From Planctomycetota bacterium (lineage in GTDB: Bacteria > Planctomycetota > UBA1135 > UBA2386): a stretch of 64,000 bases of DNA. Where the stretch lies: assembly GCA_965223545.1 (NCBI GenBank), contig OZ245006.1:6496001-6560000 (forward strand), given 5' to 3'. The translations under genes were made by a program, and so were the position numbers. This document shows, one piece after another, positions 11 to 63,810 of the stretch (positions are counted from its first letter, which is position 1; each line of letters opens with the position of its first letter). The notes under the pieces are model-generated. The model searched no databases. It was not told the DNA's origin and worked only from the letters and a program-made list of their open reading frames with translations.

Positions 11-1975
11 ATGCAACAGCGCATCGCGATTCGCCAGATGTACGCAGCCGTCCAGTGGCGGGACTACGTCGGTACTCTCGGAGCCGCGGCGGGACTCTTG
101 CGAGATGAGGCGCCGGGGGCGGCGCAGCTGTTGGATGGAGTGGAGCCGTCACTGAGAGGTTGGGAGTGGCGCATGCTGCGCCACTTGGCGGACCCGAGTG
201 AGTGGACCGCCGAAGTGTCCATCCTGCAGCCATTCGGGGATCGCGTGTACTGCGCCGGCGACTTGCACTTCGAAGTCCTGGACGCGGAGACCGGGCGGCA
301 TTTGCCGTCGCCGTTTGGCCAAACGCCCGTCGGGGGGCTCGCTGTTTCGCCGGATCAGCGGCGTGCCGTCACGGTTTCGGGCGTCGCTGGGTTGAGTCTC
401 ACCGAGTTGTTATTCTGGGATCTTGCGCGTTCGGAAACGGTGCGGCGCTTGCCGGGTCGACGGGTCAACCCCCTGTGCTTTAGCCCGGACGGTGAGCATT
501 TCTTGGTCGCCGAGTATGTGGCTGATCAAGAGCACGAACTGCGAACGATCCGGTGGGACTCCGGAGAGGTAGTTGGCTCGCTACCGGCGAGGAACGGCAG
601 AGCCTGGTTCATTTATGCCAGCCAGCTTTCTTTGATTGGCAGCGCCGCTATCAATGGCCTCGATTTTGCCTTAGTCGATCTGAAGGATTTTCGATTGATC
701 ACCACTTTACCCAATGCTTCCAGTGGTGGCTTGACCAGACCGTCGATCTCGGCAGATGGAAGTCGTGTAACGTCCGGAACCTGGCATACAGCCGGACATG
801 TCGTCTATGACGTCGGACGCCGCGCGCCTATCGCATCGATCGGAGCCGCGGAGCGCCGGGAGCACTACATGAGCGGGGGGGCAATCAGCCCCGATGGCCG
901 GCTGCTCGCACGGAACCACCATGTCAACATCGAAGTGTGGGACCTTGAGAACAATCGACGCATGGGAGTCCTGCGGGGGCATTCTCAGCCCCCGAAACAC
1001 CTGTTTTTTCCGGCCGCGGACACGCTGTACAGCAACGCTGACGGGCGCTCGAAGAAGTGGCGCATCCCCGACGCAATGTCGCCGACGGTGCTCACGGCTG
1101 GCTCCAGCTTCATCACCGCGTTGGCGTTCTCTCCCGACGCGAAGACTCTATACACGGCCTGCATGCACGGTGACCCCGCGATCCTGGCCTGGGATCTCCG
1201 CTCGCATTCCGTGTCCAGAGCGTTTCCGGGTACCAGCGCCGAGCGATACCGAATCGACTTGGAGGCGTCGGGTGAGACACTGCTCGCCTGCGGGAAGTCG
1301 CAGTGGGTGGAGAGGATCGACCTGCAGTCCGGCGAGATCGCGGGCGATCACCGGCCGAGTGACAACGGAACCACTTGGGCGGCCGCGTTGCCGCGGTCCG
1401 GCGGCTTCGTTATTAGCCAATGGTCGCAGTGGGGGCCGGGTTCCAAGGTTCAGCTGCTGACTGCGAGTGGGGGCGTAGCTTGGCGGCGCGAGTTTGGTGG
1501 CCAAGTTTCGCAGCTCTGTGTGGCGGACGATGAGTCGTGGATCGCCGTGGGGTTCAACGATGGAAGTATCCAGCTGCTGGCTGTGGATGGGGACCCCGTA
1601 GGACTCTTGCAGAGCGCTCTCGAGCCGGTTCGTTCCCTCAGCGGATCCCGTGACGCCAGGCAGCTCGTCAGTGTTGGCCGAACGACGGCACGAGTATGGG
1701 ACGTGGCGCGTCGCAGTCTCACCGCCGAGTTCGACGTCGGCAGCACCGGTACGACGGTCCGCCAGTGCGTGTTCGATCCGACCGGAACGCGGGTGGTTGC
1801 GGGAGAACAAAACGCGCTCGTGTTCTATCTCGCTCGAACTGGTGAGCGGTTGCTCGGTTGGCAGCTCCCGGACTTCCCGACTGCAGTAGCCTTCTCCAAG
1901 GGCGGTGACACGCTTGCCGTGGGCACGCGGGAGGGGCGAGTCTACGTCTTCTCCAGTGTTCGTCCAAAACGCTGA
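11..1975 (+). CDS. WD40-repeat beta-propeller protein; probably the C-terminal part of a Ser/Thr kinase-WD40 protein starting before the window
   Basis: Many WD40 motifs (LAVSPD, LRGH, ALAFSPD, RVWD). 'RGWEWR' precedes the propeller as in planctomycete kinase-WD40 proteins. The frame is open to the window edge. Confidence 0.8.
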   Translation: MQQRIAIRQMYAAVQWRDYVGTLGAAAGLLRDEAPGAAQLLDGVEPSLRGWEWRMLRHLADPSEWTAEVSILQPFGDRVYCAGDLHFEVLDAETGRHLPSPFGQTPVGGLAVSPDQRRAVTVSGVAGLSLTELLFWDLARSETVRRLPGRRVNPLCFSPDGEHFLVAEYVADQEHELRTIRWDSGEVVGSLPARNGRAWFIYASQLSLIGSAAINGLDFALVDLKDFRLITTLPNASSGGLTRPSISADGSRVTSGTWHTAGHVVYDVGRRAPIASIGAAERREHYMSGGAISPDGRLLARNHHVNIEVWDLENNRRMGVLRGHSQPPKHLFFPAADTLYSNADGRSKKWRIPDAMSPTVLTAGSSFITALAFSPDAKTLYTACMHGDPAILAWDLRSHSVSRAFPGTSAERYRIDLEASGETLLACGKSQWVERIDLQSGEIAGDHRPSDNGTTWAAALPRSGGFVISQWSQWGPGSKVQLLTASGGVAWRREFGGQVSQLCVADDESWIAVGFNDGSIQLLAVDGDPVGLLQSALEPVRSLSGSRDARQLVSVGRTTARVWDVARRSLTAEFDVGSTGTTVRQCVFDPTGTRVVAGEQNALVFYLARTGERLLGWQLPDFPTAVAFSKGGDTLAVGTREGRVYVFSSVRPKR

Positions 1976-2040
1976 CTCGTTGGGCGAGCGAGGCGGCCCG
2001 CTGCACCGCCGTGCGGCTCGCCGACCTACCGCGGCGAGAC

Positions 2041-2643
2041 CTACCAGTCCTGCCGCGATGCGCCGAGCAGGGCTCCGAGTTTGGTGATCGCTCGGCTGTG
2101 TAGGATTTGCACCGCGTTCTCCGTCCGCCCCATTTGTAGGGCGATCTCGGTGAACCTCTGGCACTCGAACTGGCGTAGCTCCAGCACGTGCTGGTAGTCC
2201 CGCGGGAGCTCTTCGATCGCTGCGGCGAGGCGGTGCATGTCCTCGGCCACAACGGCTGCGCGGTCCGGAGTGTCCGCGGAGTCGTGCAAGATCTGCGAGA
2301 GCTGTGAGACCGCTTGTTCGCGGTCGCGGCGGAGCTCGTCGTGGATGTTGTGGCGTGCAATTTCGGTCAACCAGGCCAGGAAGCCCGGGTGGGTCCGCGC
2401 CCTGCACCGGTCAATATCGCGCGCCGCTTCGAGGATTGTCTGTTGCAGAAAGTCCTCGGACTCGGCGACACGGCGAGCCGCGGGTCCCATGAGCAGGCGG
2501 ATCCGTCGGAGCAGCTGCGAACGGTGGTGTTCGACCAATCGGTACAAGCTGTTGGCATCTCCGCGGGTGGCACGGTTCAGAAGCTCGATCGTAGCGGTTA
2601 GGTCGGCGTCGCGCATGGGCACGAAACGGAGCAGGAGATGCAC
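2041..2643 (-). CDS. ECF RNA polymerase sigma factor
   Basis: Region 2 (EDFLQQT...FLAWLTEIARHNIHD) and region 4 (IEELPRDYQHVLELR...EIALQMGRTENAVQ). The start may be 2616. Confidence 0.88.
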   Translation of the reverse strand: MHLLLRFVPMRDADLTATIELLNRATRGDANSLYRLVEHHRSQLLRRIRLLMGPAARRVAESEDFLQQTILEAARDIDRCRARTHPGFLAWLTEIARHNIHDELRRDREQAVSQLSQILHDSADTPDRAAVVAEDMHRLAAAIEELPRDYQHVLELRQFECQRFTEIALQMGRTENAVQILHSRAITKLGALLGASRQDW

Positions 2644-2839
2644 TCTAAGCCATTGTCGTTCCGTTCACGAACGCGACATCGACCGTCAGTTGCGCCCGGA
2701 ACGACAGAGGTCCGTGCGTTTTGTGCGGAGAGCCGAAAACAACGCAGGGTTGATACGCTTTTTTGCAACGGGAATCCGCGGCTCAATCGATTCGTGCGCG
2801 GCCGGGTCGTTCATCATCTCCGCTGGCCGTGGCACGTCG

Positions 2840-3118
2840 CACGGGGCCGTCGAGGAGTGCCTGGTAGGCGATGTTGCAGCGACTGATGGTCTTGCCGGCG
2901 CCATTGGGGCTGGCGTTCTCGGGCTCGTCGAGGAAGCCCAGCCGCAGCACGTTTCCACGAGGTCGCGTTTCGACCTGCTTGGGCCAGTCCCAATCGAAGT
3001 CGGCGATCGGCTTGAAGCGCCCGAGCTTGGCGTTGCGGATACGGCGCTCGAGGATGCCGCTCTGGCGCTCGTCGTCCGCGGTCACGAGCAGCTCGTGCAC
3101 CCAGGCCTCGCGTGCCAT
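2840..3118 (-). pseudogene. istB: IS21-family helper ATPase (IstB) fragment
   Basis: ERRIRNAKLGRFKPIADFDWDWPK...GAGKT matches the IstB N-terminus and a damaged Walker A. Truncated, with no istA nearby. Confidence 0.75.
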
Positions 3119-3121
3119 GGT

Positions 3122-5773
3122 CTACTCCGCCCGAGACACCTTGCGGCTCACGCGAACCCCGACCGTTGGATCTCGTCGTCCCGGCGCGAGCGGCAACCGC
3201 CAGTACACGACCGCGCGGCCCTCCGTGACCATGTAGCAGCCGCCGCGGAGGACGCGTGACTGTGTGTTGCCGGCGCGGAGCACGGCATCGGTGGGCACCC
3301 GCAAGCCATCACCCGCGCGCAGCGGGTAGCCGTCGCGGGGCAGCCATTGATCCAGCGTGAGCTCGCGCACGTTGCCGTGCACGTCATAGAGACCAAAAGC
3401 GTTGAATCGCGGGAGCGAGCCGACGGGGCTGTGCAGGGCCCAGCCGTCGGTGAACTTGGCGACGGATCCCTTGCCTGGAACCCCGGCATCGGCGGCGCTT
3501 TGGTCGTAGAGGTTCTCCGCGTCGCCGGGGTCTTCACCCGTCCAAAACGCGGTCGTGGTTCCGGCGCGCGCCGCATACTCCCACTGCGCGGCGGTCGGCG
3601 CTGTGAGCTCGTAGCGCGCCAACAGCCGGTCGCAGGATTCGAACGAGAAGTTCTCAACCGGGTGCCGGTTGTTGGAGAGCGTATAGTGGTTCTGTGGCGT
3701 GTAGTAGCTCGGCTCATCACCGTTCGACAGGCGGAGCCATTGGCCGCGGGTCAGCTCGTGGCGGGCGACGAAGAACGGCGCGAGCTCGACCGATTGCACT
3801 GGAGTCATACCGCTGGCGGCTCCGGCCTTCGAGTAGTAGGGCCGTTCGGGATCTTCGCTCTGGCAGCCGACGTGAGCGAGTCCGCCCGGGACCAGGACGA
3901 ACACGATTCCCATGTCGGCCTCGACCCTGATCGAGCCATCGGCTTCGATGACGGGCAACTGCTCGCGGTTCTCGGCCGATAGCAGGTGGTAGAATTCCCA
4001 GAGTCGGGTCGCAGGATTCTCGCCAAGTGGCACCAAGCCGACCTGTGGCTCCAGGTCGACGCGGCCGGCGCCGTAACGCTCCGAGCGTAGGATTGCACCT
4101 CGGGCTTCGCGCCACCGTTCGGCGTGCCGCGTGATGCTGAGCTCTTCGATTGCGCGCGCGTCGGCGAGACGCGCGCGCAGGTCGGGAAGCGTCCTCGTGT
4201 GCGCCGCCTGGAAGCGGGCGTCGAGCGGGGTCGTGATCTCGAGCAGCCGTTCGACGGTACCGCCTTCGATGTACTGGGGAGGTGCATCGCGCAAGCGCGC
4301 TGCGACCGCGTTTGCGTTCGTCTGTCGTTCGTCGAGCGCGTGGGCTCTGGTGAGCAGCTGCTCCATCGCCCCAACCATCGTTGAGCGAACAGGGCCCAGC
4401 GCCTCTGCGTCTCGCTCGAGCTGTGTGAGGAAGGAGTCGGTGCCCAGCGTCGCTTCGAGGATGAAGCGGGCGTCCGCGGCCTCTCGGCGATCGCGTTCGG
4501 TGGTCAACCACCGGTGGAGCGCGGCTCCAAACCCGGCGATCGCGATGACCAAGCCCACGCCGAGCGCCGCGATCACCGGGTTGCGTTGGGTCCAACGCCG
4601 CAGCTCTGCCCACGCGCCGCTCTCGAAGCTGCGTACGACTCGACCGTCCAGCCATGCCTCCAGCTCGGCGCGGAACTCGGTGACCGACTCGTAGCGCTGC
4701 GCCGGGTCGCGGGCCATCGCGCGTTCGCAGATCGCGACGAGCGGTGCTGGTGCGTGCTCGTCCATGGCGCCAAGTCGCGTCGGTGGCTGCGAGCGGACGA
4801 GCGTCACGAGCGCCTCCATGTCCGTGCTGCGAGCGTCGTCGGAGTACGGGGCGCTTCGCGAGAGGGTGTGGTACAGCGTGGCGCCGAGAGCGTAGACATC
4901 GCTGCGCTCGTCCGCGGCGCGGCCGGCCGCCTGTTCCGGAGCCATGTACGCGGGTGTTCCGATGACTCGGCCATCGCCGGTCACCAACGACCCGTCCGCG
5001 GCGACTTCCAGGGTGAGCGGTTGTTGATCCTCTGTGGGTTCTCCGAGCAGCGAGCAAAGGCCCCAGTCGACAAGGCGCGCCTCGCCGTGCTCGCCGACCA
5101 TGATGTTGTCGGGTTTGATATCGCGGTGGACGACACCGCGACTGTGTGCGTACTCGACGGCGCTACAAACCGCCGCCAAGACTCGAATCCGGCGGGGGAG
5201 CGGCCACCCGCCCTCGAGGTCTCGATCTGCAATACAGTCGGTCAGCGTAGTGCCGGCGACAAGCGGCATCGTGAAGTACAACCGGTCGTCCGAGTCCAGG
5301 CCGATCTCGTGCACCGGCAGGATCGCTGGGTGGTCGAGTTTGCCGAGGACTTGTGCCTCCTCAGCGATCAGCCGCTGGCGCAAGTCGATCGAGCTGCTCG
5401 ACCCACCGCCGTGTGCGGCCTTGAGCGCGATCGATCGATCGAGGTCGCGGTCCCACGCTTCGCGCACGACGCCCATGCCTCCGCGGGCGAGCGTGTGCAC
5501 GAGTCGGTAGCGATCACCGAACGCCCGGCGCCCTCGGAGTAGCGTTGCAAGCTGATCGCCGCCGCGCACCGCAGTTGCCGCAATCTTGCGATTGAGCAGT
5601 ACCGCGCGATTGGCATCGTAGTCGCGCCGCACCTGCTCCAGGTCTGTGGCGAGATCCGGTCGATCGCGCAAGAGCGCGGCGAACGCCTCGTCATCGATGC
5701 TCTCGCCGCGCCCCAGAAGGTTGAAAAAAAGCCGCTCGGCGGCCAACGAGTGAGTATCGTCGGAGTCCATCAT
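3122..5773 (-). CDS. Ser/Thr protein kinase with TM helix and C-terminal formylglycine-generating-enzyme (FGE/SUMF1) domain
   Basis: GGMGVV, HRDIKPDN, DWG and GTPAYMAPEQ kinase motifs. C-terminal PTAAQWEYAARAG, NAFGLYDVHGNV and RVLRGG. The true start is about 5770-5773; the ORF-track extension overlaps the ECF gene. Confidence 0.9.
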   Translation of the reverse strand: MMDSDDTHSLAAERLFFNLLGRGESIDDEAFAALLRDRPDLATDLEQVRRDYDANRAVLLNRKIAATAVRGGDQLATLLRGRRAFGDRYRLVHTLARGGMGVVREAWDRDLDRSIALKAAHGGGSSSSIDLRQRLIAEEAQVLGKLDHPAILPVHEIGLDSDDRLYFTMPLVAGTTLTDCIADRDLEGGWPLPRRIRVLAAVCSAVEYAHSRGVVHRDIKPDNIMVGEHGEARLVDWGLCSLLGEPTEDQQPLTLEVAADGSLVTGDGRVIGTPAYMAPEQAAGRAADERSDVYALGATLYHTLSRSAPYSDDARSTDMEALVTLVRSQPPTRLGAMDEHAPAPLVAICERAMARDPAQRYESVTEFRAELEAWLDGRVVRSFESGAWAELRRWTQRNPVIAALGVGLVIAIAGFGAALHRWLTTERDRREAADARFILEATLGTDSFLTQLERDAEALGPVRSTMVGAMEQLLTRAHALDERQTNANAVAARLRDAPPQYIEGGTVERLLEITTPLDARFQAAHTRTLPDLRARLADARAIEELSITRHAERWREARGAILRSERYGAGRVDLEPQVGLVPLGENPATRLWEFYHLLSAENREQLPVIEADGSIRVEADMGIVFVLVPGGLAHVGCQSEDPERPYYSKAGAASGMTPVQSVELAPFFVARHELTRGQWLRLSNGDEPSYYTPQNHYTLSNNRHPVENFSFESCDRLLARYELTAPTAAQWEYAARAGTTTAFWTGEDPGDAENLYDQSAADAGVPGKGSVAKFTDGWALHSPVGSLPRFNAFGLYDVHGNVRELTLDQWLPRDGYPLRAGDGLRVPTDAVLRAGNTQSRVLRGGCYMVTEGRAVVYWRLPLAPGRRDPTVGVRVSRKVSRAE

Positions 5774-42426: not shown

Positions 42427-42472
42427 TGGTGGGCAGGGGCGGATTTGAACCGCCGACCCCAGCATTTTCAGT
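42427..42472 (-). tRNA. 3' half of tRNA-Phe(GAA): att-site duplication, not a complete tRNA
   Basis: Minus strand reads ACTGAAAATGCTGGGGTCGGCGGTTCAAATCCGCCCCTGCCCACCA: anticodon loop GAA, T-arm GGTTCAAATCC, CCA end. The 5' anticodon stem and D-arm are absent. Confidence 0.88.
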
Positions 42473-54536: not shown

Positions 54537-56144
54537 CTATTCCTTGTACGATCCGAACTTTCCTCGCGCGTTGGATAGGTGAGCGCCCACCGTCCCGATG
54601 CTAACGCCCAACGTAGCGGCGATTTCTGGATAGGAGAGCTGCTCGGAGCGAAGTTCAACGACCTTCCTCTCAGAGTTTGTTAGTAGACGCCAGAGGTGCT
54701 CTTGCTCATCTTGGATCTCCAACTTCTCCGCGGGCGCAGGATGCGGACAAACGACTTCCTCCGGGTGATCCAGCGCTTGTGGCGCACGTGTCTCTGATCG
54801 AAAGTAATCGACCTTCGCACTTCGAATGACCCTCGAAAGATACGGGCGCAACGCACGTGCGTCGGAGATGTGGCTGATGTGCTTCACCATCCTTCTTCCC
54901 ACTTCGGCTGCGACATCTGGTGCCGCGGTTTGGTCAAGATCGCGTCGGAGCTGACGGGTCACATTCCGGTGCAGCGACTTCCATGCGCCCGCGTCTCCGG
55001 CCTGTAGCAGGTCGAGCATGCTCGCCGACTCCAGACGCTCTCGACTTGCTAGGAGTCTCGTTCGGCCGACTTGAAGGCCGCCGAGAGCGGATTCGAGGAT
55101 CTGACCTGCTTGTGTTAGCACCCAGCGTCGCCACTCAGTTGAGCTCGGCACGTAGGCTTCTCGCACGCGCGCGCGGATGGCGCACCCAACATCCGAGCGT
55201 GGGTCGAGTGGGCTTCGCGCGAGGTAAGAACGCGCCATCGCAGCGCGCAGGCATTCCCATCGATCGACGGTCCCGAACTCTACGCTGAGTGCACAAGTCC
55301 AGTCGGATGCTGGGGACAGGCTCCGCGCAGCATCCATGGTGCTGCCCTGTACTTCGTAGGCGATCGACTCTTCCGCCAGGATCGATTCCACTTCCGGGAA
55401 GATCGCGCGAGCTACGCTGAGCTCTTCCGATCCCTCCGGCTCCGAAGCAAGTACCGTTGCTTTCGCCCATGGGCCAAGTCCTGAGTGAAGGTCGACGAAG
55501 AGAACGCGCTCTGCGTGCTGGGGTATCGCAGATAGCGCTTCGACGAACGTGCGCGCCGACCAGGTTACGCCAGTTCCGCCGTAGTACGAGCCGTCATCGA
55601 AGTCGAACTGAACCGGGCCGAGTGCGCTGAATAGCTCTTTCTCCCCATGTGCGTCGACGAACCTCTCGAGTGACGCGATCCGGCGACCCCAGTCCGACCC
55701 CCTATAGTCCTGAGCTAGGAGCATCGGGTGGACCCTGGCGTATGCGTCGTTCGTTGGCTTCGGTCTGCTGTGGTCAACGAAGGCGCGGTTGAGGTCGACC
55801 CAGTTCTCGTCTTGCCGCTGGTCGTAGCTGGCGCCGTATGGGTTCACGCCGTGGATGAACAGGACTGCGACGTCATCCGGAAGACCGGCCTTCGCGATGC
55901 GTTCCAAGAGTTGCAGCTGAATCGCGGATCCGACGAGTAGCTCGCACCCGTGCGTCCCCGAAGAGCACACAAGCCAAGATGTTGCTTTGCGCTTCCCAGC
56001 GAGAGCTACGTCAACGGCGAGCTGCTCGCCGTTCAGTCCGGGCGAAGGGTGAATCCAGTGGGCGGTGTCGAGCCCTTGCTGCGCTGCTGCGTCGAGTAGC
56101 CGGCTTCGGGCCACGGACGGCTGCGCCGAGAAGAAACGTTCCAT
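54537..56144 (-). CDS. M14-like metallopeptidase (DUF2817-type) fused to a C-terminal ECF sigma factor
   Basis: SSGTHGCE, HGVNPYG, VDLNR, DLHSGLG, VEFGT; then sigma region 2 (YLSRVIRSAKVDYFR) and region 4 (SYPEIAATLGVSIGTVGAHLSNAR). Confidence 0.82.
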   Translation of the reverse strand: MERFFSAQPSVARSRLLDAAAQQGLDTAHWIHPSPGLNGEQLAVDVALAGKRKATSWLVCSSGTHGCELLVGSAIQLQLLERIAKAGLPDDVAVLFIHGVNPYGASYDQRQDENWVDLNRAFVDHSRPKPTNDAYARVHPMLLAQDYRGSDWGRRIASLERFVDAHGEKELFSALGPVQFDFDDGSYYGGTGVTWSARTFVEALSAIPQHAERVLFVDLHSGLGPWAKATVLASEPEGSEELSVARAIFPEVESILAEESIAYEVQGSTMDAARSLSPASDWTCALSVEFGTVDRWECLRAAMARSYLARSPLDPRSDVGCAIRARVREAYVPSSTEWRRWVLTQAGQILESALGGLQVGRTRLLASRERLESASMLDLLQAGDAGAWKSLHRNVTRQLRRDLDQTAAPDVAAEVGRRMVKHISHISDARALRPYLSRVIRSAKVDYFRSETRAPQALDHPEEVVCPHPAPAEKLEIQDEQEHLWRLLTNSERKVVELRSEQLSYPEIAATLGVSIGTVGAHLSNARGKFGSYKE

Positions 56145-56988
56145 CGAGTAGGTCCCTCCCGAGGGGAGAAACCCGCGTGAAGCGCCACTTGGCAAGTGAG
56201 GGTTGCTGGCTTTCGCCGAGTCGCTACGCTCACAGGTGTTCGGATGCGCTTCGGCGCTCCACGCGGGCGAGCCAGAGCAGGCGCTTTGGTTCGCCCGTCG
56301 CTTTTCCCCCGGGAGGGGAAAGCAAGCAAGCGGCTTTGAGTCGCATGTTCATAGCCCGTGTTGTGGTTGGTGTCGACCGCACGTGCGGTCGGCGTGTTGT
56401 AGCAGGGTCAAGGTAGCTACTTCACGAACGGTTCCGCAAGCCCCCTGGACGCAGCAAGTTGGTCCTCACACTGGGGTAGAGCGAAACCTCCGAATCGCTC
56501 CACGCGAACCGTCGATCGTGGCACGCCGTCGTGGAGCGAACGACATGCTTCGCTCCACGTCGCTTGACTAGCAAACCCGAGATGTGAGAGCGTTGCGCCG
56601 AGAGTCAGGCGACGGTTCTAAGGGGAGGTTCAACGCGGTGGGCGAGCGTTGTTGGTTCGTGTGTTGTAGCAGATTCATGGTCCGCTCCTCGTCCGCGCAA
56701 AGTGCGCACGTCGTCGACGCTGCGCCGGAGCTTTCCCACGGTTCTGTGGTCTGACTCTCACTCCCATTTGCGTCTCGCGGCATCACGTGGGATGAAACGC
56801 GTGGGATGTTCCACGTCGCACCGCAACCTGTTGTGCTGTGTGGAATGAAACGCAGCCGAGCCTCCACGCCACTAGTTGCAGCTCGGTGTCAGACCATGAA
56901 CTCGATGTCGCCCTAAAGAAGACTGCCTCATGCTCGTCCTTCCTCTTTGCCTGCAGCTGTCTCGAGAAAAAGACACGGAGCAAGAAAC

Positions 56989-57653: not shown

Positions 57654-58739
57654 CTATGTCGACGCTAACGTGACCACCCGCGCACGCATTGCCTCGCGGA
57701 GCGGCGCGGAAACCGAGATGCCACCATGCTCGAGATTGTTGGTGAGGAGGGGGCCGAGAATCAGGTTCGCGATTTCACGCCCCTCAACAGACCATGGCCG
57801 TCCTGCGAGGGTGGTGCGAGCAAGTTGAGCGAGTGACGTGGCAAGCACATCTGCGAGTTGGATGCACCGACTCGAATGAGACGTTGCCGTGGCGAAATCG
57901 TGGAGGTGTGCGAAACCGATACTTGGGAAGTCAGGGACGGGGGTCAGCTTCTTACCGTGCTCACCGATCTTCGTCATGTGCCCGACCCATTGCCTCAACA
58001 CTTCGCCGTACTGATTCGTCTCATCATGGAACACGCTGATGAGACCGTAGCCTTGCGCCTCTGCAAACGCATCTGCCGCTTCGAGCATCCGCATCGTCCC
58101 GGGAAGGTGAGGGGAGGTGACTTGGGAGTGTTTGTGACCGCCGCGGTCGCTGAAGTCGTAGTCGATGACCTCCTGTAGGTTCTTCAGGCACCCCTCGATC
58201 ATATGTGCGATTCCCGATTCGCCCAGCGTGCGAACGCCGGCAGCGACTGCTGTGATCCCTGACCTGAGGCTTGCCTCCGTGGGGGCGGCGATTGCTCTCG
58301 CGTAGGCAACAGCCGACCGTTCTGGAATGTTGTAGAGGAACTCGATGAGTTCCAGGTAGCCGGGGTTGCCGATCGATGGCGCGCCTTCGGCCCGGGGGTT
58401 TGTATGTCGATCGAGCAAGGCGTGGACGATCCGCTCGGCTAGTTGGTAGCGCTTCTCGACGAGGTAGAAGAATGGGATGGCTCCCGCCTCCTTGACTGCC
58501 GTGACCAGGTCGCGGGCGAGTGGCCACCCGGTGCGCCTGCGTAGCATCCGGCTTGCGTGGAGCTCCGCCGCATTGCTGCGTGACGCCAGCCCGTCGATCG
58601 TCGCGACGACGGCGTCTTCCGAGTCAAGCGGAACGAGCCAGCTCGCAAAGACCATCACGGGCTGGGCACGATCGTTGTAGTTGGCCCCGGTGTTTCCGGC
58701 TTCGTCGCAATAGAGGCGATGGGTGTCCTGGACGATCAC
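57654..58739 (-). CDS. DUF3800-family (RNase H-like) protein
   Basis: LYCDEAGNTG, ELHAS and IQLADVLA motifs. Confidence 0.8.
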   Translation of the reverse strand: MIVQDTHRLYCDEAGNTGANYNDRAQPVMVFASWLVPLDSEDAVVATIDGLASRSNAAELHASRMLRRRTGWPLARDLVTAVKEAGAIPFFYLVEKRYQLAERIVHALLDRHTNPRAEGAPSIGNPGYLELIEFLYNIPERSAVAYARAIAAPTEASLRSGITAVAAGVRTLGESGIAHMIEGCLKNLQEVIDYDFSDRGGHKHSQVTSPHLPGTMRMLEAADAFAEAQGYGLISVFHDETNQYGEVLRQWVGHMTKIGEHGKKLTPVPDFPSIGFAHLHDFATATSHSSRCIQLADVLATSLAQLARTTLAGRPWSVEGREIANLILGPLLTNNLEHGGISVSAPLREAMRARVVTLAST

Positions 58740-58873
58740 ATCGAAGTCATCGTTGCGCCCGGATGGGAGCTTGAGGCGGTTTGGGTCGGGGCCCGCGATC
58801 CCGCGCCGATTCGCAGGTCTGCGGGACGAGGCAGTGGCCCATGGCAAGCAGATGTGCGCCGGTTCAGAACCTT

Positions 58874-58938
58874 GTTCTGGGTGTCCCCTTCAGTGTTGAC
58901 AGCGAATGGTAAGAGAAGTTGTTGACGAAGGGGTTGGA
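58874..58938 (+). repeat. Direct repeat, copy 1, with dif-like core and TTGACA
   Basis: GTTCTGgGTGTCCCCTT..GTTGACAGcGAAtGGTAAgAGAAGTT..AAGGGGTT; matches 62315-62388. Confidence 0.7.
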
Positions 58939-59052
58939 CGCCTAAGCCCCTGTGACGTGGGGCTTTGTGGCTCGGCCGCGCAATTGCTTGTCGGCACCTG
59001 AAACCCTTCAGTCGGGTGTAGAGTTCATGGTGACCGTGCTACGCTCGTTTCG

Positions 59053-59511
59053 ATGGCCGAGACCTACACAATCGGGCGCCTGGCGAAGGTCGCCGAAGTT
59101 CCCATCTCAACCGTTCGCTACTACGAACAGCGCGGACTCTTGAAGCCGGAACGGCGAACTGAGTCCAACTACCGCGTCTACGGCCCGGCCAGTTTGAAGC
59201 GCTTGCGGTTTATCCGCATCGCGCAGCAAAGCGGCTTCACTCTCGAAGACATCGTGCTCCTTCTCCAGCTTCGCGACCGTGGAAGTGCCACCAGCTGCAA
59301 GCAGGTGGAAAACCTCGTCGACAAGCGACTCGACAACATCACGGCCCAGCTTCGGGAACTTCGACGCGTGCAAAAGGTCCTCCAGTCGACGCTCGAGTGG
59401 TGCAGGAACCCTCGCGTGAAAGGTCGCTGCCGAGTGCTGGACGACTTGGACGGGCAGGCCGCAAGTTCAGGGAAACGCAAATCACCGAGACGTGCCGGAA
59501 AGGCCTCTTGA
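59053..59511 (+). CDS. merR: MerR-family heavy-metal-responsive regulator
   Basis: TIGRLAK...TVRYYEQRGLL HTH. Cys at 82, 117 and 126, the same spacing as the Hg-binding triad of MerR (also shared by CadR/PbrR). Confidence 0.9.
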   Translation: MAETYTIGRLAKVAEVPISTVRYYEQRGLLKPERRTESNYRVYGPASLKRLRFIRIAQQSGFTLEDIVLLLQLRDRGSATSCKQVENLVDKRLDNITAQLRELRRVQKVLQSTLEWCRNPRVKGRCRVLDDLDGQAASSGKRKSPRRAGKAS

Positions 59512-59539
59512 CCCTTCACCATACTTCAAGCTGTAGCCT
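59508..59539 (+). promoter_or_regulatory. MerR-type long-spacer promoter for the HMA-Trx selenoprotein
   Basis: TTGACC-N20-TAGCCT with an imperfect dyad in the spacer; ATG 7 nt after the -10 (leaderless-like). Confidence 0.7.
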
Positions 59540-59546
59540 TTCCCTC

Positions 59547-60269
59547 ATGCACCCCATCCTGCGCCCAGGCCTCAGTTCGGTTCTGCTGCTCTCCCTGGTG
59601 GCTTGCTCTGAGCCACTAACAGACTCGCCAACTCACGCGCCCACTCCGGAGCTCTCGAAGCTCGTCTCGATTCGCGTCGCTGGTTTCATCGAGGCTGCAG
59701 GCATCACCTGAATGGGTTGACCGAACAAGGTCAAAGAAGCCCTGGATGGGCTTCAAGGCGTTCAGGATGTGCAGGTTGACCTCGAAGACGACAGGTTCGA
59801 TGTCACTTACAACCCGAGGGAAGTGTCTTCCGACACCTTGCTCGAGGCGGTCAGAAAGCTCGACTACACGCCGCAGCTGGTAACGCGCGCGGAGGGTGGG
59901 GGAGAGGCGCCTGCGGACCAGGTCGATGCGGCGCAGCTCCCCAAGGAACTTGCGGCGCTCTTCGCCAAGGCTCGGGAATCCAATAAGGTCGTGCTGCTCA
60001 AGTTCTCCGGGCCAGGTTGACCGCCGTGCAAACGCATGGATGCCGTGACGTATCCGCACGAAGTCGTGAAGAAGGAACTTGATGAACACTGGGTCACGAC
60101 TCACTACGACGTGAGTGAAGCGAAGCGTGTCGCTACCCTCTTCGGAGTCTCGGCGATTCCTGTTGCTATTGGTGTGACCGCTGACGGAATGGTTCTGGGG
60201 CGAGTTCTTGGGTTTGTCGAACCCGAGCGTTTCGAGAAGGAACTCGAGACACTTCGCGCCAAGCGCTAG
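59547..60269 (+). CDS. Predicted triple-selenocysteine lipoprotein: HMA domain (GIT-U-MG-U) plus thioredoxin domain (U-PP-C), 240 aa
   Basis: Three ORF-track pieces are in one frame, separated only by TGA at 59709, 59718 and 60018, each at a CxxC cysteine position. Lipobox LVAC; TAG stop; SECIS-like hairpins. Confidence 0.88.
59736..59754 (+). promoter_or_regulatory. Putative bacterial SECIS hairpin
   Basis: GAAGCCC-TGGAT-GGGCTTC; the loop starts 22 nt after UGA 59718-20 and 31 nt after UGA 59709-11. Confidence 0.7.
60025..60060 (+). promoter_or_regulatory. Putative bacterial SECIS hairpin
   Basis: ACGCA-TGGA-TGC(C)GT upper stem and CGTGC/GCACG lower stem; loop 16 nt after UGA 60018-20; same TGGA loop as 59743. 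Confidence 0.6.
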
Positions 60270-60865
60270 TTCGGGACCACCTTGTAGCCAGTGCGCTCAA
60301 CCGCCTGAACGACTTGCTCGTTGGCGGGAGGAGAGTTCGGCTCGAAGAACACGGTCGCGAGGCCTTCGCTGTAGTTGACGGAAGCACTTGCTACACCGGG
60401 AACCGTGAGAAGCTCCTTCTTCACGTGCACCGTGCAAGCCTCGCACGTCATGCCTTCGATTCGAACGGTCGCCTTCTCGGTCGCTGCTGCATTCGACGGG
60501 GTCGCCTCTCCCTGGTCAGGCGCGATGAGGCCTACGTAGTTCGGGAAGAGGCCAACAACCAACACCAGGGCCGTTGCGACCCAGAGCATCGCTCGGTTGA
60601 AGCGCACGAACTTGTTGCTCGGAGTCGCGCAAGTCTCCCCTGGTGCGCACGCCTGTTTCCGAAAGTAGGTGAAGTAGAAGCCACCAGCGAGAAGCACCGC
60701 TGCGCCACCGAGGAAGTAGGGACGCACAGCTTCAAACTGCGCCGAGATTCCAGCTGCAGATACGCCGAACGCAAGAAGCAGAAGGGGAAGCCAGCAGCAC
60801 GCAGACGCCACAACAGCTGCAAGCACCGACCCGAATGCGGCCAACATCCCACCGCGACCACTCAC
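60266..60865 (-). CDS. merTP: MerT-MerP(HMA) fusion mercuric-ion transporter
   Basis: ASACC.LPL TM1, RPYF, CAPGETC loop, C-terminal GMTCEAC HMA domain. Confidence 0.9.
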   Translation of the reverse strand: MSGRGGMLAAFGSVLAAVVASACCWLPLLLLAFGVSAAGISAQFEAVRPYFLGGAAVLLAGGFYFTYFRKQACAPGETCATPSNKFVRFNRAMLWVATALVLVVGLFPNYVGLIAPDQGEATPSNAAATEKATVRIEGMTCEACTVHVKKELLTVPGVASASVNYSEGLATVFFEPNSPPANEQVVQAVERTGYKVVPN

Positions 60866-61278
60866 GATGTGGCCTCCTTGACGGCTTTTCTGAGGTCACC
60901 AAGACAGCACGACCCCTTCGGGTTCATCGTCTCGCAGCTGCATTCGCCAGCCTTCACCTTCGCGGTCACGGATTCCACGACGGCGCTCTCTCCGGTGCGA
61001 AGCACTTCGTCGCGGATGCTCTCCGCGCTGTGCCCGAAGCAGTAGCAGACCGGGTGGGGAGCGTCTGTCTCCTTCACCCCGACTCGGACCGCGACGTCGT
61101 CCTTGAGCAGCGTCGTTCCATCGCCTGCGAAGTAGACAACATCACAGTCGGGCTCTGGGCAAAACACCCACTGTCGCCCCTCAACAGCGCCTCGCACTTC
61201 TTCTCGCGCGAGGCTCTCGACCGTGACGGTCTTGACCGGCTTTCCTGGCGTCTTGGTCTTGGGGCAGAGAAGGTCCAT
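60862..61278 (-). CDS. Cys-rich CopZ-N-like Zn/[2Fe-2S] metallochaperone
   Basis: FCPEPDCDVVYF, VGVKE, PVCYCF, CSCETMNPKGSCCLG. Confidence 0.85.
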   Translation of the reverse strand: MDLLCPKTKTPGKPVKTVTVESLAREEVRGAVEGRQWVFCPEPDCDVVYFAGDGTTLLKDDVAVRVGVKETDAPHPVCYCFGHSAESIRDEVLRTGESAVVESVTAKVKAGECSCETMNPKGSCCLGDLRKAVKEATS

Positions 61279-61284
61279 GCTCCC

Positions 61285-61316
61285 ATTTACGGCCTTGAAC
61301 CCTGCTTTAGGGTCAA
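61285..61316 (-). promoter_or_regulatory. MerR-type promoter/operator for the metallochaperone-merTP genes
   Basis: Minus strand TTGACC-CTAAAGCAGGGTTCAAGGCC-GTAAAT, then ATG 6 nt later. Confidence 0.6.
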
Positions 61317-61353
61317 GGGTTTTTCGGAGAATGACCAAGAAGCCCGCGCAACG

Positions 61354-62154
61354 TCACTTGTGGAGCAACTCGACGACCTTGTCCACGGCGTTCTTCGACG
61401 GCACGCGCACCGCGCCTACGAACTTGCCGTCCGCATCCAACACCACCAGCCCTGGGATGGGGGCGTCCTCGTGCTCGTGCTTGAACTTGTAGGCATGCGG
61501 TCTCCTCACGATGACGCGCACGGCATTCTTCGAGGTTTCGATGACTTGCTCGTCGTTCACGATGTCTGAGAGCGCACGGCTCTCAAAGCGGGTGCTTGGT
61601 CATCAAGTCTCTGCGCCAGAAAGCCCCACAAGAACGAGCTTCTTCTCCTTCTTGGCCTTCGCAACCGCATCAGCCAGCGACGCAAGGCTTGCGAACTGCC
61701 ACTCAAGGCGCGGCTTCTCGGGAGCCTTCATCTCCTTGGCCCCGAGCGATACCGAGACTTTCTCTTCCTTCAACGTCTTTGCGCGCAGCACGACGGCCTC
61801 GAGCTTCTTCCCAGGCTTACTCACACGCAACACATCGGCGATGTCGTCCTGGCTGAAGAGTTCGACTGCGCCGAGCTTCACGAGCACGTCACCGGCCTCG
61901 ATGCCTGCTTTGCCAGCGGCGCTGTCCTTCTCCACATCTGAGACAACCTGGCCGCGAGCTCGGACCTCGAACTTGAGGTCGAGCTGCTTGACCTCTTCCT
62001 TGGATGGAGCGCGCGTGCTCGCGCCGAGTGTTGCGACCTTGACGAGCTTCGGTTCCTTCTCTTGAGGGTCTTGGTCTGGCTTCTCTTGCGCTGCGACCGG
62101 GCAGCAACAGAGAAGCCCAACGACCGGGCCTAGAAGGTGACGGGTCCTGACCAT
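61354..62154 (-). CDS. Predicted selenoprotein with tandem Sec-Sec: signal peptide, PDZ domain and thioredoxin-like domain (GAET-U-U-PST), 266 aa
   Basis: ORFs 61603-62202 and 61354-61560 are in frame, separated by TGA-TGA (61605-61600) and 13 sense codons. The Trx fold continues on both sides (AVAKAKKEKKLVLV ... IPGLVVLDADGK). SECIS-like hairpin follows. Confidence 0.78.
61565..61587 (-). promoter_or_regulatory. Putative bacterial SECIS hairpin
   Basis: Minus strand TTTGAGAGC-CGTGC-GCTCTCAGA; loop 21 and 24 nt after the two UGAs, with G at loop position 2. Confidence 0.68.
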
Positions 62155-62187
62155 GCTTTCGGTTCCTGGGGGGGTTGGAGGGCTGGC

Positions 62188-62219
62188 ATTGTCCACCCTC
62201 AACCATGGTGCATGGTCAA
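62188..62219 (-). promoter_or_regulatory. MerR-type long-spacer promoter for the PDZ-Trx selenoprotein
   Basis: Minus strand TTGACC-ATGCACCATGGTTGAGGGTG-GACAAT: 20-bp spacer with a dyad centred on CCATGG. Confidence 0.72.
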
Positions 62220-62314
62220 CTACTCCGCGAGGGGAAGTCGACCCGGGCGATGGGCGCCTTGGAAGGTGAGTCGGCGATGTCCTGCCGGACCGCTCACCAC
62301 CGTTCCCTAACGTC

Positions 62315-62388
62315 GTTCTGTGTGTCCCCTTCTGCCGTTGACAGTGAACGGTAAAAGAAGTTATCTTGCTTCTGAAAAAGGGGTTAGA
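62315..62388 (+). repeat. Direct repeat, copy 2, with dif-like core overlapping a sigma70-like promoter
   Basis: GTGAACGGTAA-AAGAAG-TTATCTTGCTT; TTGACA at 62338. Confidence 0.7.
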
Positions 62389-62713
62389 TCGGAAGGGGAG
62401 ACGCCGTTTGAAACCACGGAAGAGGCCAACACCACACTACTCGGACGACGCACCATTCTGCTGGATCGATGAGTGGTGGACCTGGGTGTTCACGCCTACC
62501 GGTAGCGTGCCGTGGCTCGAGCGCGAGGGTCGAGAACTTGAGGACGGCATGCGGCTTGAGGTTCGGCTTGGTCCTGAACGTTGGCTTCCGGTCTACGTGC
62601 GGCGGCGCGGGGAGGTGGTCACGTTCTGCTACCCCTTGCCGCACATCGATGACGAGCTCCTGATCGACATCCCGCACGAAGCTGAGCTTCGCCTTGTGGA
62701 GCCTGCGGCATGA
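62366..62713 (+). CDS. Hypothetical protein coupled to the recombinase
   Basis: ATGA overlap with the recombinase; start uncertain. Confidence 0.45.
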   Translation: MLLKKGLDRKGRRRLKPRKRPTPHYSDDAPFCWIDEWWTWVFTPTGSVPWLEREGRELEDGMRLEVRLGPERWLPVYVRRRGEVVTFCYPLPHIDDELLIDIPHEAELRLVEPAA

Positions 62714-63810
62714 CGGCGGGGCTCCTCACCGAGACGCCGCTGTCCAGACCGACGGACTCGAAGCCAGTTCGCGAGTTGCCGCGGATTCTTGAGGGACATG
62801 GCTCGCCCGCGGTGCGTCGGCGCGTCGAGAGCTTCGTCGCCTCTGTCGAAGCGATGTTCGAGGCCTGGGTCGCAAGGAGGGACAACCCGCACACTCAGCG
62901 CGCCTACCGGCAGGACGTTATGCACTTCGTTCGGTTCGCCGGGATCGAGTGGCCACGCGACGACTGGAACTTGCTCAAGAGCACGGTGCCCGACGTCCAG
63001 GAGTGGCGGACCTTCATGATCCAAGTCGATGGTAGCGCCCCAAAGACGGTGCTCCGTCGAGTGACGTCGCTCTCCCGGTTCTTCGAATACATGCGTGAGC
63101 AAGCGGCGGAGTTTCGGCTTCCCGTGATCGTGCCGAACCCCGCGCACAAGAACCACATCCCGCGCGAGGATGCAGAGCCAGTGGCGCCCACGAAGGAGCT
63201 CACGTTCTCTCGAGTTCGGCAACTCAAGGAGCTCGCCGCGGGCGAGTCGGTGCTGGCCTACCGCGACCGCGCGATCATCTACTTTTACCTCTACACCGGT
63301 GCTCGGATCGGCACCGGTTGTTCGGTTCGCGTCGAGGACTGTCACCTCGACCCCGAGGATCCCTACTTGATGGTGCGGGAGAAGGGAAAGGGCGCGAGCC
63401 GCAGGCGCGTTGGCATCAACGCGCAGTGCGCAGAAGCGCTCGCGGAATACATCGAGGAGGCCAGGCTCGGTAGCGGGCCCCTCTTCCGCCCGCGGGCGAA
63501 TTCTCGGTCGGCAAAGCTCGCAAGCCGGGCGATGACCACGGTCACGATGTATCGGTTGCTGAAGAGTTACCTCGAGCGGTTGCCGCGCGCGTCACGCGAG
63601 GTTCAGCTTCCAGACGGAAGCATCGTACGTCGGTGCATCTACACGCCTCATTCGCTTCGAGCGACAGCCGCAACCCAAGCGGATGAGGTTGGCGTTCCGA
63701 TCACCAAGATTCAGGAGCTGCTCGGCCACAAGCAGATCAAAACAACTCAGGTCTACGTCAAGCGCAAGCGCGGAACGAAGGAGAGTGCGTCGCATCAGCT
63801 GCCGTTCTGA
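62710..63810 (+). CDS. Tyrosine recombinase (XerC/D-like resolvase/integrase)
   Basis: N-terminal TQRAYRQD SAM-like domain; RDRAII...YTGAR, KG, HSLRATA and LLGH...TTQVY catalytic residues. Confidence 0.93.
   Translation: MTAGLLTETPLSRPTDSKPVRELPRILEGHGSPAVRRRVESFVASVEAMFEAWVARRDNPHTQRAYRQDVMHFVRFAGIEWPRDDWNLLKSTVPDVQEWRTFMIQVDGSAPKTVLRRVTSLSRFFEYMREQAAEFRLPVIVPNPAHKNHIPREDAEPVAPTKELTFSRVRQLKELAAGESVLAYRDRAIIYFYLYTGARIGTGCSVRVEDCHLDPEDPYLMVREKGKGASRRRVGINAQCAEALAEYIEEARLGSGPLFRPRANSRSAKLASRAMTTVTMYRLLKSYLERLPRASREVQLPDGSIVRRCIYTPHSLRATAATQADEVGVPITKIQELLGHKQIKTTQVYVKRKRGTKESASHQLPF

Follow-up and report, generated by a model that had tools for sequence, protein, structure and literature searches.

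A MerR-type gene module with two predicted exported selenoproteins on an integrative element of a Planctomycetota bacterium

The stretch of DNA analysed here, hereafter the window, comprises 64,000 nucleotides from a Planctomycetota bacterium (assembly GCA_965223545.1, contig OZ245006.1, positions 6,496,001 to 6,560,000 of the forward strand) and carries at positions 59053–62219 a module of five genes, merR, HMA-Trx, MerT-HMA, CopZ-Nt-CC and PDZ-TrxUU (Trx, thioredoxin; Nt, N-terminal). Two of the genes, HMA-Trx and PDZ-TrxUU, run through five in-frame UGA codons that are very probably all read as selenocysteine (Sec, U), and their products bear export signals as read from the sequence. We put at roughly 0.55 the probability that the module is a MerR-controlled system for handling soft (thiophilic) metals of the mercury type, carried by an integrative element, whose periplasmic ligands are Sec instead of Cys. 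One of the two exported proteins joins a PDZ domain to a thioredoxin-fold domain with two adjacent Sec residues and looks like a new selenoprotein family, large and widespread in Planctomycetota and apparently uncatalogued. An initial annotation of this DNA, made from the letters alone, had described a MerR with Cys82/117/126, a MerTP, a Cys-rich metallochaperone and two exported proteins with five in-frame UGAs at redox or metal motifs, and all of these proved to be present where it had placed them (TGA at 59709, 59718, 60018 and 61605–61600). The genes are as follows.

59053–59511, plus strand: merR-family metal sensor, 152 aa (Pfam MerR_1, 71.2 bits)
59547–60269, plus strand: predicted lipoprotein selenoprotein, HMA(U55-x-x-U58)-thioredoxin(U158-P-P-C), 240 aa
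60266–60865, minus strand: MerT-HMA (MerTP-type) fusion (Pfam MerT and HMA)
60862–61278 (longer frame to 61338), minus strand: CopZ-N-terminal-type Zn/[2Fe-2S] 'CC' metallochaperone (zf_CopZ, NF047645)
61354–62154 (longer frame to 62202), minus strand: predicted exported PDZ and thioredoxin-fold selenoprotein with vicinal U-U, 266 aa

The three minus-strand genes (PDZ-Trx, CopZ-Nt and MerT-HMA) converge on the plus-strand HMA-Trx gene. For two of them the shorter frame is more likely: ATG 62154 rather than 62202 for PDZ-Trx, with the signal peptide directly after, and ATG 61278 for the chaperone, which yields 138 aa and equals the NF047645 model in length. The right end of the feature as first delimited (62219) coincides with the -35 box of the PDZ-Trx promoter.

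Five in-frame UGA codons and their hairpins

The codons in question and the hairpins that follow them, which resemble Sec insertion sequences (SECIS), are listed below; the related loci (labelled L) and the phylum sample are described in the next section.

59709–59720, plus strand: UGA-AUG-GGU-UGA, predicted to code the HMA UxxU (U55 and U58; TGA at 59709 and 59718)
59736–59754, plus strand: SECIS-like hairpin GAAGCCC-UGGAU-GGGCUUC after the UxxU codons, kept in 12 sequences
60018–60020, plus strand: UGA predicted to code U158 of the Trx UxxC; Cys in L035, L040, L045, L008 and P0003
60038–60055, plus strand: SECIS-like hairpin GGAUGC-CGUGAC-GUAUCC after the UxxC UGA, kept in 8 sequences
61600–61605, minus strand: tandem UGA UGA; TGA TGA in 18/18 related loci and 26/26 phylum-sample matches
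61566–61586, minus strand: SECIS-like hairpin (U)UGAGAGC-CGUGC-GCUCUCA(G), 16–21 nt past the UGA-UGA, kept in 19/19 sequences

The HMA-Trx protein opens with a lipoprotein-type signal (…LSLVAC), followed by an HMA domain with the motif T-U-M-G-U and a thioredoxin domain with the motif G-U-P-P-C (Pfam HMA, 49.5 bits; Thioredoxin_2, 42.3 bits). Its UxxU occupies the CxxC position of the HMA domain, and both codons are TGA in 12 of 12 genomic homologues; the third position is TGA in 8 of these and TGC or TGT (WC[AS]PC) in 4. The sole match in the protein database, P0003, is a fragment whose first residue lies within the HMA domain; its GPGCPPCKRMDAVTYP corresponds to GPGUPPCKRMDAVTYP of the window protein, placing Cys (GPGCPPC) at U158. 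The initial annotation had proposed comparing UGA with Cys across homologues, and the positions do correspond: U158 aligns with Cys, the tandem UU with CC, and the UxxU with the CxxC of the HMA domain. Among NCBIfam models the best match of the HMA domain is NF041115, 'UxxU metal-binding (seleno)protein', at 54.8 bits against a cut-off of 95, so that membership is not reached; the next-best matches of the HMA domains are CopZ-type copper chaperones. The likeness to NF041115 lies in the HMA fold, with Sec in place of both metal-binding Cys; that model, however, describes a stand-alone domain of 74 residues, whereas the 59547–60269 product is a lipoprotein that has in addition a Trx domain at its C-terminus, bearing a third Sec, and is paired or fused with PDZ-TrxUU.

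A hairpin after each UGA cluster had also been noted at the outset, and all three were found again, conserved in homologues with compensatory changes. Because fold z-scores against shuffles were unimpressive for single sequences (-1.45 to -2.78 for the three, each weak alone), the hairpins were examined in homologues. The hairpin behind the tandem UGA is present in 19 of 19 sequences with an invariant G-U in its loop; 95.4% of alignment cells pair, compared with 18–57% when the 3' partner is slid by 1–3 columns, and compensatory changes occur in 8 cells at two pairs, a count that none of 500 shuffles matched. In our reading, some of these pair a synonymous change at a third codon position with a replacement on the opposite arm. 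Compensatory changes affect three pairs of the UxxU hairpin (12 sequences) and one pair of the UxxC hairpin (8 sequences).

The host's capacity to make Sec, to which the initial annotation had pointed as a check, is borne out by its genome, in which selA (384 bits), the wing domain of selB, tRNA-Sec and selD (345.8 bits) were all detected. The selD match (genome coordinates C1:1264004–1264921, minus strand, locus L003) runs through one in-frame TGA, so that SelD is probably itself a selenoprotein; the gene directly adjoins selA. Elsewhere in the region TGA acts as an ordinary stop, since merR and the PDZ-Trx gene both terminate in it. One run contains the stretch without differences in a single contig and may be its source; no RNA run containing it is listed. 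A variant contig about 90% identical to the stretch retains the TGAs at 59709 and 59718, which lends weak and non-independent support only. In contigs of a run from a different study, filed under a different organism label, 58500–62476 is identical, which could mean either that both samples contained this organism or that a transfer took place very recently.

A thioredoxin-fold family with adjacent UGA codons

The tandem UGA of the PDZ-Trx gene stands in the context GLSGAET-U-U-PSTRFE ... RRPHAY ... PIPG. An exhaustive search of 1.84 billion protein representatives returned 4278 matches at E ≤ 0.001, most of which share the PDZ domain only. Among the best 150, 79 end exactly one residue before the first UGA (U200), three end in Cys followed by a stop, and two, P0007 and P0061, read through with Cys-Cys. 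The truncated products carry public names such as 'predicted metalloprotease with PDZ domain', 'CtpA/Prc' and 'hypothetical protein'. A word-based search with residues 186–282 of P0002 among proteins of 155–494 aa found no full-length Cys forms, though relatives as distant as P0007 and P0061 (34% identity) may escape such a search.

At the DNA level, a pattern scan over one genome per species yielded 18 related loci, all labelled Planctomycetota, and in 18 of 18 TGA TGA is followed by the conserved frame. The pattern, [VI][LV]VGLSGAET, lies upstream of the UGAs and misses the GS[DE]T-CC forms ('GSDT/GSET-CC'), so the count covers this sub-pattern only. A six-frame search with the C-terminal domain in 400 other genomes, sampled evenly across the phylum, added 26 matches other than self, which are spread over 24 genomes and all (26/26) contain exactly two TGA, and one further match was found in G020, a genome of the host's own family. 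Some genomes hold two paralogous PDZ-Trx genes about 1.5 kb apart (G264:C36 and G338:C1), both copies with two TGA, and in L042 and L043 two PDZ-Trx copies flank HMA-Trx. In L045 (973–4327) the PDZ-TrxUU gene is interrupted by a Mu-type transposase (rve domain, open reading frame (ORF) 1526–3220), with a P-type ATPase gene downstream.

Structure prediction by AlphaFold2 (AF2) on 19 read-through sequences gave a two-domain model (pLDDT, the predicted local confidence score, 89; pTM, the predicted template-modelling score, 0.81), of which the N-terminal domain resembles the PDZ domains of HtrA-type proteins in Foldseek comparisons. As the full-length model returned PDZ matches only, the C-terminal domain was folded and searched separately; it adopts a thioredoxin fold (pLDDT 86.4), with DsbH (2ju5), DsbD-gamma (1uc7) and thioredoxins as nearest structures (probability 1.0, TM-score 0.6–0.69). 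At the sequence level, Pfam Thioredoxin_7 scores only 19.9 bits on the PDZ protein against a cut-off of 27, and a search of PDB sequences with a profile of the C-terminal domain found nothing meaningful. The thioredoxin CxxC motif itself is absent, being replaced by U-U-P-[ST], or by C-C-[PA]-F in the Cys forms, so that the position of the resolving Cys holds no chalcogen. In our reading of the models, AET-U-U-P-S corresponds to AEW-C-G-P-C of thioredoxin, in which case the first U would take the place of the nucleophilic Cys, the second that of the next residue, and Ser, Thr or Phe that of the resolving Cys. Invariant across the family are T-U-U, R-F-E, R-R-P-(H)-A-Y and P-I-P-G, the last of cis-Pro type. 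Mechanistically, though not by homology, the U-U recalls the vicinal dichalcogenide centres of MerA (C-terminal Cys-Cys) and MerT (Cys-Cys in the first transmembrane helix, TM1). On a flexible segment, as in MerA, MerT and mammalian thioredoxin reductase (Gly-Cys-Sec-Gly), two adjacent chalcogens are able to chelate Hg(II) or, when oxidised, to close into an eight-membered ring; to our knowledge none of these three vicinal centres is Sec-Sec or sits at the CxxC position of a thioredoxin fold.

That the UGAs are true stops, with the genes being split or pseudogenes, or with an independent small ORF lying beyond a double stop, is an explanation to which we give very little credence. Gene callers do end the family here, as the 79 truncated representatives illustrate, sources label the truncated products 'PDZ metalloprotease' or 'CtpA/Prc', and the fold z-scores of the single hairpins are modest. 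Set against this, the T-R-F-E right after the UGAs is invariant and the whole downstream domain is conserved, with no start codon available to it; TGA TGA is retained in every genome examined, and the CC homologues are contiguous proteins. The read-through product, moreover, is modelled as one confident Trx domain (pLDDT 86–89), the host has a complete Sec machinery, and the hairpins are conserved and co-vary.

As for known families, no NCBIfam model covers the C-terminal domain in 17 members, the best being DsbH at E = 0.008. A comparable named family, NF041199 ('Trx7/PDZ domain-containing (seleno)protein'), likewise describes an exported selenoprotein of Planctomycetota type that combines PDZ and Trx-like domains; the match to the window protein, however, concerns the PDZ part only (residues 74–182 on model positions 195–305, 36.6 bits against 300). 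The domain order is reversed, PDZ coming first in PDZ-TrxUU, the motif is U-U-P-[ST] rather than the CxxU given for NF041199 in a 2026 review of prokaryotic selenoproteomes (PMC13188914), and the RRPHAY and TRFE signatures are specific to the PDZ-TrxUU family. A 'UU' motif does not appear among the 119 selenoprotein families of Table 1 of that review. In full-text literature comprising few subscription journals and no supplements, nothing relevant was retrieved on tandem, adjacent or vicinal Sec or consecutive UGA in bacteria, nor on Sec in connection with MerR, mercury, the periplasm or Planctomycetes. The initial annotation had not recognised the gene set as a described one, and these searches agree with it: no matching NCBIfam model for the UU domain, no UU among the 119 families and no relevant literature match.

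The two selenoproteins form, on strong sequence support, a conserved pair. Of the 18 related loci, 10 have PDZ-TrxUU next to HMA(UxxU)-Trx, and in 4 or 5 it is fused to that protein or to the Trx part of it. In two loci from metagenome-assembled genomes (L038:3980–5326, cut by the contig end, and L039:3854–5368) they share one reading frame with five predicted Sec; L040 also has them in a single frame, with their order reversed; in L049 PDZ-TrxUU is preceded within its frame by a Trx(CxxC) part; and in L036 the PDZ-TrxUU frame continues into an HMA domain, which is closely followed by a Trx ORF. The full set of five genes recurs in 4 of the 18 loci, in the same order as in the window in L032 and L033 (57–77% protein identity) and in a different order in L035 and L040. 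Synteny, which had been proposed as a test, is thus present for the pair and for the four complete loci, the remaining loci being without the full set.

Control, proposed working and the metal concerned

Each of three transcription units is preceded by a sequence that resembles a MerR-type promoter.

59508–59539, plus strand: predicted promoter of HMA-Trx, TTGACC (overlapping the merR stop), 20-nt spacer, TAGCCT, ATG 7 nt on; homologous promoter at the equivalent place in L032
61285–61316, minus strand: predicted promoter of copZNt-merTP, TTGACC, 20 nt with a dyad, GTAAAT, 6 nt to the ATG; motif also before copZNt in L032, L033 and L040
62188–62219, minus strand: predicted promoter of PDZ-Trx, TTGACC, 20-nt spacer with the dyad ACCATG-CAC-CATGGT, GACAAT

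Over-long spacers of 19–20 bp with an internal dyad are a hallmark of activation by MerR-family regulators, and the three sites share a layout in which an ACCnnGGT-type dyad at spacer positions 5–12 is followed by a -10-like hexamer. The HMA-Trx promoter is the inverted-repeat partner of the copZNt promoter; it deviates in the GGT part and is not among the sites counted for the motif TTGACC-N4-A[CG]C-N2-GGT. That motif occurs three times in the 8.1-Mb genome, with about 1.6 occurrences expected from base composition, and two of the three lie in the module. It also precedes homologous genes in related loci: three units in L032, two in L033 and one in L040. Alignments upstream of merR and of the PDZ gene, made for three loci, showed only a short conserved element or none. 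A consensus promoter scan is blind to promoters of this type, since it allows spacers of 16–18 nt only, and it marked the copZNt operator dyad as 'terminator-like'. The three promoters are probably MerR-controlled and the module metal-inducible, as the initial annotation had supposed, with promoters of this kind before all three units and conserved in related loci. The third genomic copy of the motif (C1:1557296, minus strand; L051:3879–4797) lies ahead of a gene for a 148-aa exported protein with no Pfam match and the sequence 'ERRCCPF', with a second gene of the merR family behind it. The arrangement has the appearance of a further small unit that responds to metal, with a vicinal Cys-Cys at its centre.

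The regulator's only cysteines are at 82, 117 and 126, without His, which we take to be the spacing of the MerR of Tn501 and Tn21; Cu(I) sensors of the CueR type are not known to have the first of these Cys. The MerT-HMA fusion exceeds the Pfam MerT cut-off (54.2 bits against 32.9), matches HMA at 54 bits, and holds a Cys-Cys in TM1 (C23/C24), a cytoplasmic pair (C73/C79) and a CxxC in its C-terminal HMA domain (C141/C144). The chaperone matches zf_CopZ at 63.1 bits and is a member of NF047645, CopZ_Nterm_CC (125.9 bits against a cut-off of 100). In these matches it resembles the N-terminal domain of Archaeoglobus fulgidus CopZ, which reportedly holds Zn2+ and a [2Fe-2S] cluster; the window protein (61278–60862) differs in that it stands alone, without a C-terminal HMA, in an operon with MerT-HMA. 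The absence of merA, remarked on at the outset for the window, extends further: the best match in the host genome (91% complete) scores 345.8 bits against a cut-off of 454.45, and no MerA-type protein (pyridine nucleotide-disulfide oxidoreductase) or DsbD/CcdA is listed among 95 ORFs neighbouring the related loci (129 were derived, 95 were scanned with Pfam, and the 34 omitted overlapped module genes or their opposite strand). That best genomic match, at C1:5026932, was rejected as a MerA candidate and read as dihydrolipoamide dehydrogenase (Lpd), because its neighbour is the E1 gene of a 2-oxoacid dehydrogenase and its C-terminus lacks a CC. Genes for pumps of the resistance-nodulation-division (RND) type, cation diffusion facilitators (CDF), P-type ATPases or ArsR lie beside the module here and in L033, L034, L040, L045, L046 and L047: RND pumps in L033, L034 and L046, an outer-membrane factor in L034, a CusB-like adaptor and ArsR (L047, L040), and a P-type ATPase with a transposase in L045.

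From these parts a mode of action can be proposed. MerR loaded with metal, most likely Hg(II) in view of Cys82/117/126 and of MerT, would switch on the three promoters, and the exported selenolates (UxxU and UU) would bind the metal in the periplasm more tightly than thiols do and exchange it faster; the attached Trx-type centres may keep the selenolates reduced. Captured metal could be held, passed to the neighbouring RND efflux pumps, or exchanged through a Cys relay running from the MerP-like HMA to the MerT CC, the cytoplasmic pair of MerT and finally the CC of CopZ-Nt. With no MerA that could serve as a sink in the cytoplasm, the likely thermodynamic sink would be the selenolate sites, which would favour capture or export over reduction to Hg(0). 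More tentatively, and as a possibility that we hold to be doubtful, all of this can be drawn together: a phylum-wide UU family, in which SelB and SECIS decode consecutive UGAs to a vicinal diselenol, would form with HMA-Trx a periplasmic selenolate trap, which on mobile elements, together with MerT-HMA and CopZ-Nt, would serve as a MerA-independent mercury defence. In that case a gradient of affinity from thiol to selenol would pull Hg(II) out of the cytoplasm, to be retained or delivered to RND pumps with no reduction to Hg(0).

Several findings weigh against a mercury-type module. The regulator falls below every NCBIfam equivalog cut-off (ZntR, 116.9 against 143; MerR, TIGR02051, 109.1 against 150.85; CadR/PbrR, 90.4 against 151.45), as does MerT-HMA for MerTP_fusion (115.3 against 180) and MerP (39.2 against 92.55). 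No DsbD/CcdA electron donor is encoded in the module, one DsbD_TM gene lying elsewhere in the genome, and AF2 confidence is low around the UU loop (pLDDT about 55–67). Transfer of Hg from selenolate to thiolate would be uphill, which makes a classical MerP-to-MerT import relay doubtful, and stoichiometric sequestration on Sec proteins would be costly. Finally, MerTP, CopZ-Nt and MerR were not found with the selenoprotein genes in 14 of the 18 loci (within 4 kb on each side), so that a transporter of Hg type is not obligatory. The coupling to MerTP proposed in the initial annotation accordingly holds in part: the two selenoproteins are paired in 10 of 18 loci, with MerTP, CopZ-Nt and MerR alongside in only 4.

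Two other explanations bear on the same evidence. The architecture might be as described and the cargo different, i.e. Cu(I), Ag(I), Au, Cd(II), Zn(II) or Pb(II), with the exported selenoproteins acting as CusF-like periplasmic metallochaperones that feed neighbouring RND pumps of the heavy-metal-efflux (HME-RND) class, and the MerT-like and CopZ-N-terminal proteins handling the same metal. We regard this as unlikely, though it accounts for a good deal: the regulator scores best against ZntR models and stays below the MerR cut-off, the HMA domains come closest to CopZ-type copper chaperones once NF041115 is set aside, the chaperone belongs to the CopZ N-terminal family, the module has RND, CusB-like, CDF and P-type ATPase genes as neighbours in the island and in L033, L034, L045, L046 and L047, and no MerA was found in the genome or among the neighbouring ORFs scanned. 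What speaks for mercury instead is the three-Cys pattern of the regulator, which without His would fit the MerR of Tn501/Tn21 and not CueR, which is not known to have the first Cys; and a MerT with a Cys-Cys in TM1, here above its Pfam cut-off, is known from Hg(II) transport alone. It is rather improbable, in our estimate, that the exported selenoproteins are mainly oxidoreductases, i.e. Sec-dependent periplasmic reductases or isomerases linked to metal by co-regulation only, in which the PDZ domain would bring in exported proteins that are damaged or unfolded, and thiols that had been oxidised or bore metal adducts would be mended at the U-U and UxxC centres. The Trx-fold domains of both proteins, with the reductases DsbH and DsbD-gamma as nearest structures, would suit such a role, as would the resemblance of the PDZ to the domains of HtrA quality-control proteases; most catalogued bacterial selenoproteins are redox enzymes, according to the review (PMC13188914), and 8 of the 18 loci have the PDZ-Trx gene with no query-module genes within 4 kb. 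Yet the metal site in the HMA domain of the partner is a UxxU that all 12 of its homologues share, and MerR-type promoters stand ahead of the genes. The vicinal U-U, moreover, replaces the CxxC geometry, and with Ser, Thr or Phe at the position of the resolving Cys throughout the CC/CU/UU series it is closer to the metal-binding CC of MerT than to a thioredoxin redox pair.

Measured against described systems, mercury-type handling with Sec ligands would overlap with the canonical mer operon (Tn21/Tn501) in a MerR-family sensor with Cys82/117/126, the TM1 CC and cytoplasmic Cys pair of MerT, the MerP-like HMA, the over-long 20-nt spacer with a dyad in the promoters, and the location on a mobile element. 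It differs in having no MerA (in the window, the genome and the related loci scanned), in the fusion of MerT with MerP, in proteins that miss the NCBIfam equivalog cut-offs for MerR, MerTP and MerP, and in the addition of two exported selenoproteins and a CopZ-N-terminal 'CC' protein. Sec has been connected with such proteins before: Haft & Gwadz (10.1101/2022.07.06.499078) and NCBIfam describe MerT-family selenoproteins with a CU motif, including NF045683, 'MerT/CopZ fusion-like heavy metal transport selenoprotein'. The window shares with these the MerT-HMA fusion architecture and the presence of Sec in what would be Hg-type metal handling; its own MerTP, in contrast, contains Cys only and scores 90.3 bits against 375 for NF045683, the Sec residues sitting in separate exported partners. 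The same authors also present the selenocysteine-assisted organometallic (SAO) system, in which vicinal CC/CU motifs recur and a Trx-like protein carries UxxC; they read these motifs as heavy-metal contacts (10.1101/2022.07.06.499078). SAO is similarly a multi-protein system that combines vicinal chalcogen motifs with a Trx-like UxxC protein; it is built, however, from unrelated families (a MerB-like lyase, an ABC transporter), is chromosomal, occurs in anaerobic Firmicutes, is thought metabolic rather than a matter of resistance, and has no UU motif, no MerR and no MerT. Proteins of the Sec-containing HMA (UxxU), MerT-like and CopZ-N-terminal kinds have each been predicted individually (10.1101/2022.07.06.499078; PMC13188914), and Haft & Gwadz give Sec as unknown in characterised mercury-resistance families (10.1101/2022.07.06.499078). 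The vicinal U-U Trx-fold family, its pairing or fusion with a three-Sec HMA-Trx lipoprotein, and a MerR-driven, MerA-less five-gene module appear to be absent from the sources searched.

If true, the decoding of adjacent UGAs as Sec-Sec by a bacterial SECIS would be undescribed as far as these searches reach and would place new constraints on how SelB, SECIS and the ribosome cooperate; few bacterial proteins would contain more Sec than the fused five-Sec forms. Annotation of the family is systematically wrong, public gene calls ending it at the UGAs and calling the fragments 'PDZ protease', and adding it and the three-Sec HMA-Trx lipoprotein to the catalogues would correct the selenoproteomes of Planctomycetota. 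A MerR-driven, mobile and MerA-less selenolate module would, if the interpretation holds, represent a new logic of metal defence that ties selenium availability to tolerance of mercury or other soft metals in the environment. With three defined promoters, one regulator and four structural genes, the module is also experimentally tractable.

The integrative element and its flanks

The module lies in an island of about 56 kb and low GC content that is, judging by its sequence features, an integrative mobile element at tRNA-Phe. GC falls from about 0.69 to about 0.61 between 42 kb in the window and about 32 kb past the window end. The features that delimit the island and the module are these.

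42427–42472, no strand assigned: attL, the left end of the ~56-kb element; 46 bp that repeat the tRNA-Phe 3' end in direct orientation
Genome C1:6594156–6594201, beyond the window: right 46-bp copy, in tRNA-Phe next to an integrase
58859–58935, plus strand: left copy of a ~75-nt direct repeat, containing TTGACA, ahead of merR
62300–62395, plus strand: right copy of the ~75-nt direct repeat; sigma-70-like promoter TTGACA-18-TATCTT ahead of orf115 and an integrase
62710–63810, plus strand: tyrosine recombinase adjoining the module; a 47%-identical integrase lies beside the module in L035

The 46-bp tRNA-Phe repeat, the integrases, a relaxase and a type IV coupling protein (T4CP) bear out the earlier placement of the module on a mobile element. 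Its genes include a second integrase, a CDF exporter and two RND systems besides those for an ArdC-like protein, the T4CP, a TrwC relaxase and ParA; none of the ORFs scanned was recognisable as a mating-pair-formation gene. The island (window 42427–42472; L031:13980–15231) also holds OLD/UvrD-like genes. The ~75-nt repeat flanks the 3.4-kb module exactly, and its core, 79% identical between the copies, includes GTGTCCCCTTC...GTTGACAG.GAA.GGTAA.AGAAGTT. Two copies only exist in the whole genome and none was found in the related loci. The repeat may be a duplicated promoter or the footprint of a cassette inserted beside an integrase. Farther to the left, window positions 54537–56195 (minus strand) form one frame of 552 aa that joins DUF2817 (residues 22–362, 272 bits) to regions 2 and 4 of an extracytoplasmic-function (ECF)-type sigma-70 factor (421–546), and is either an unusual fusion or two genes run together.

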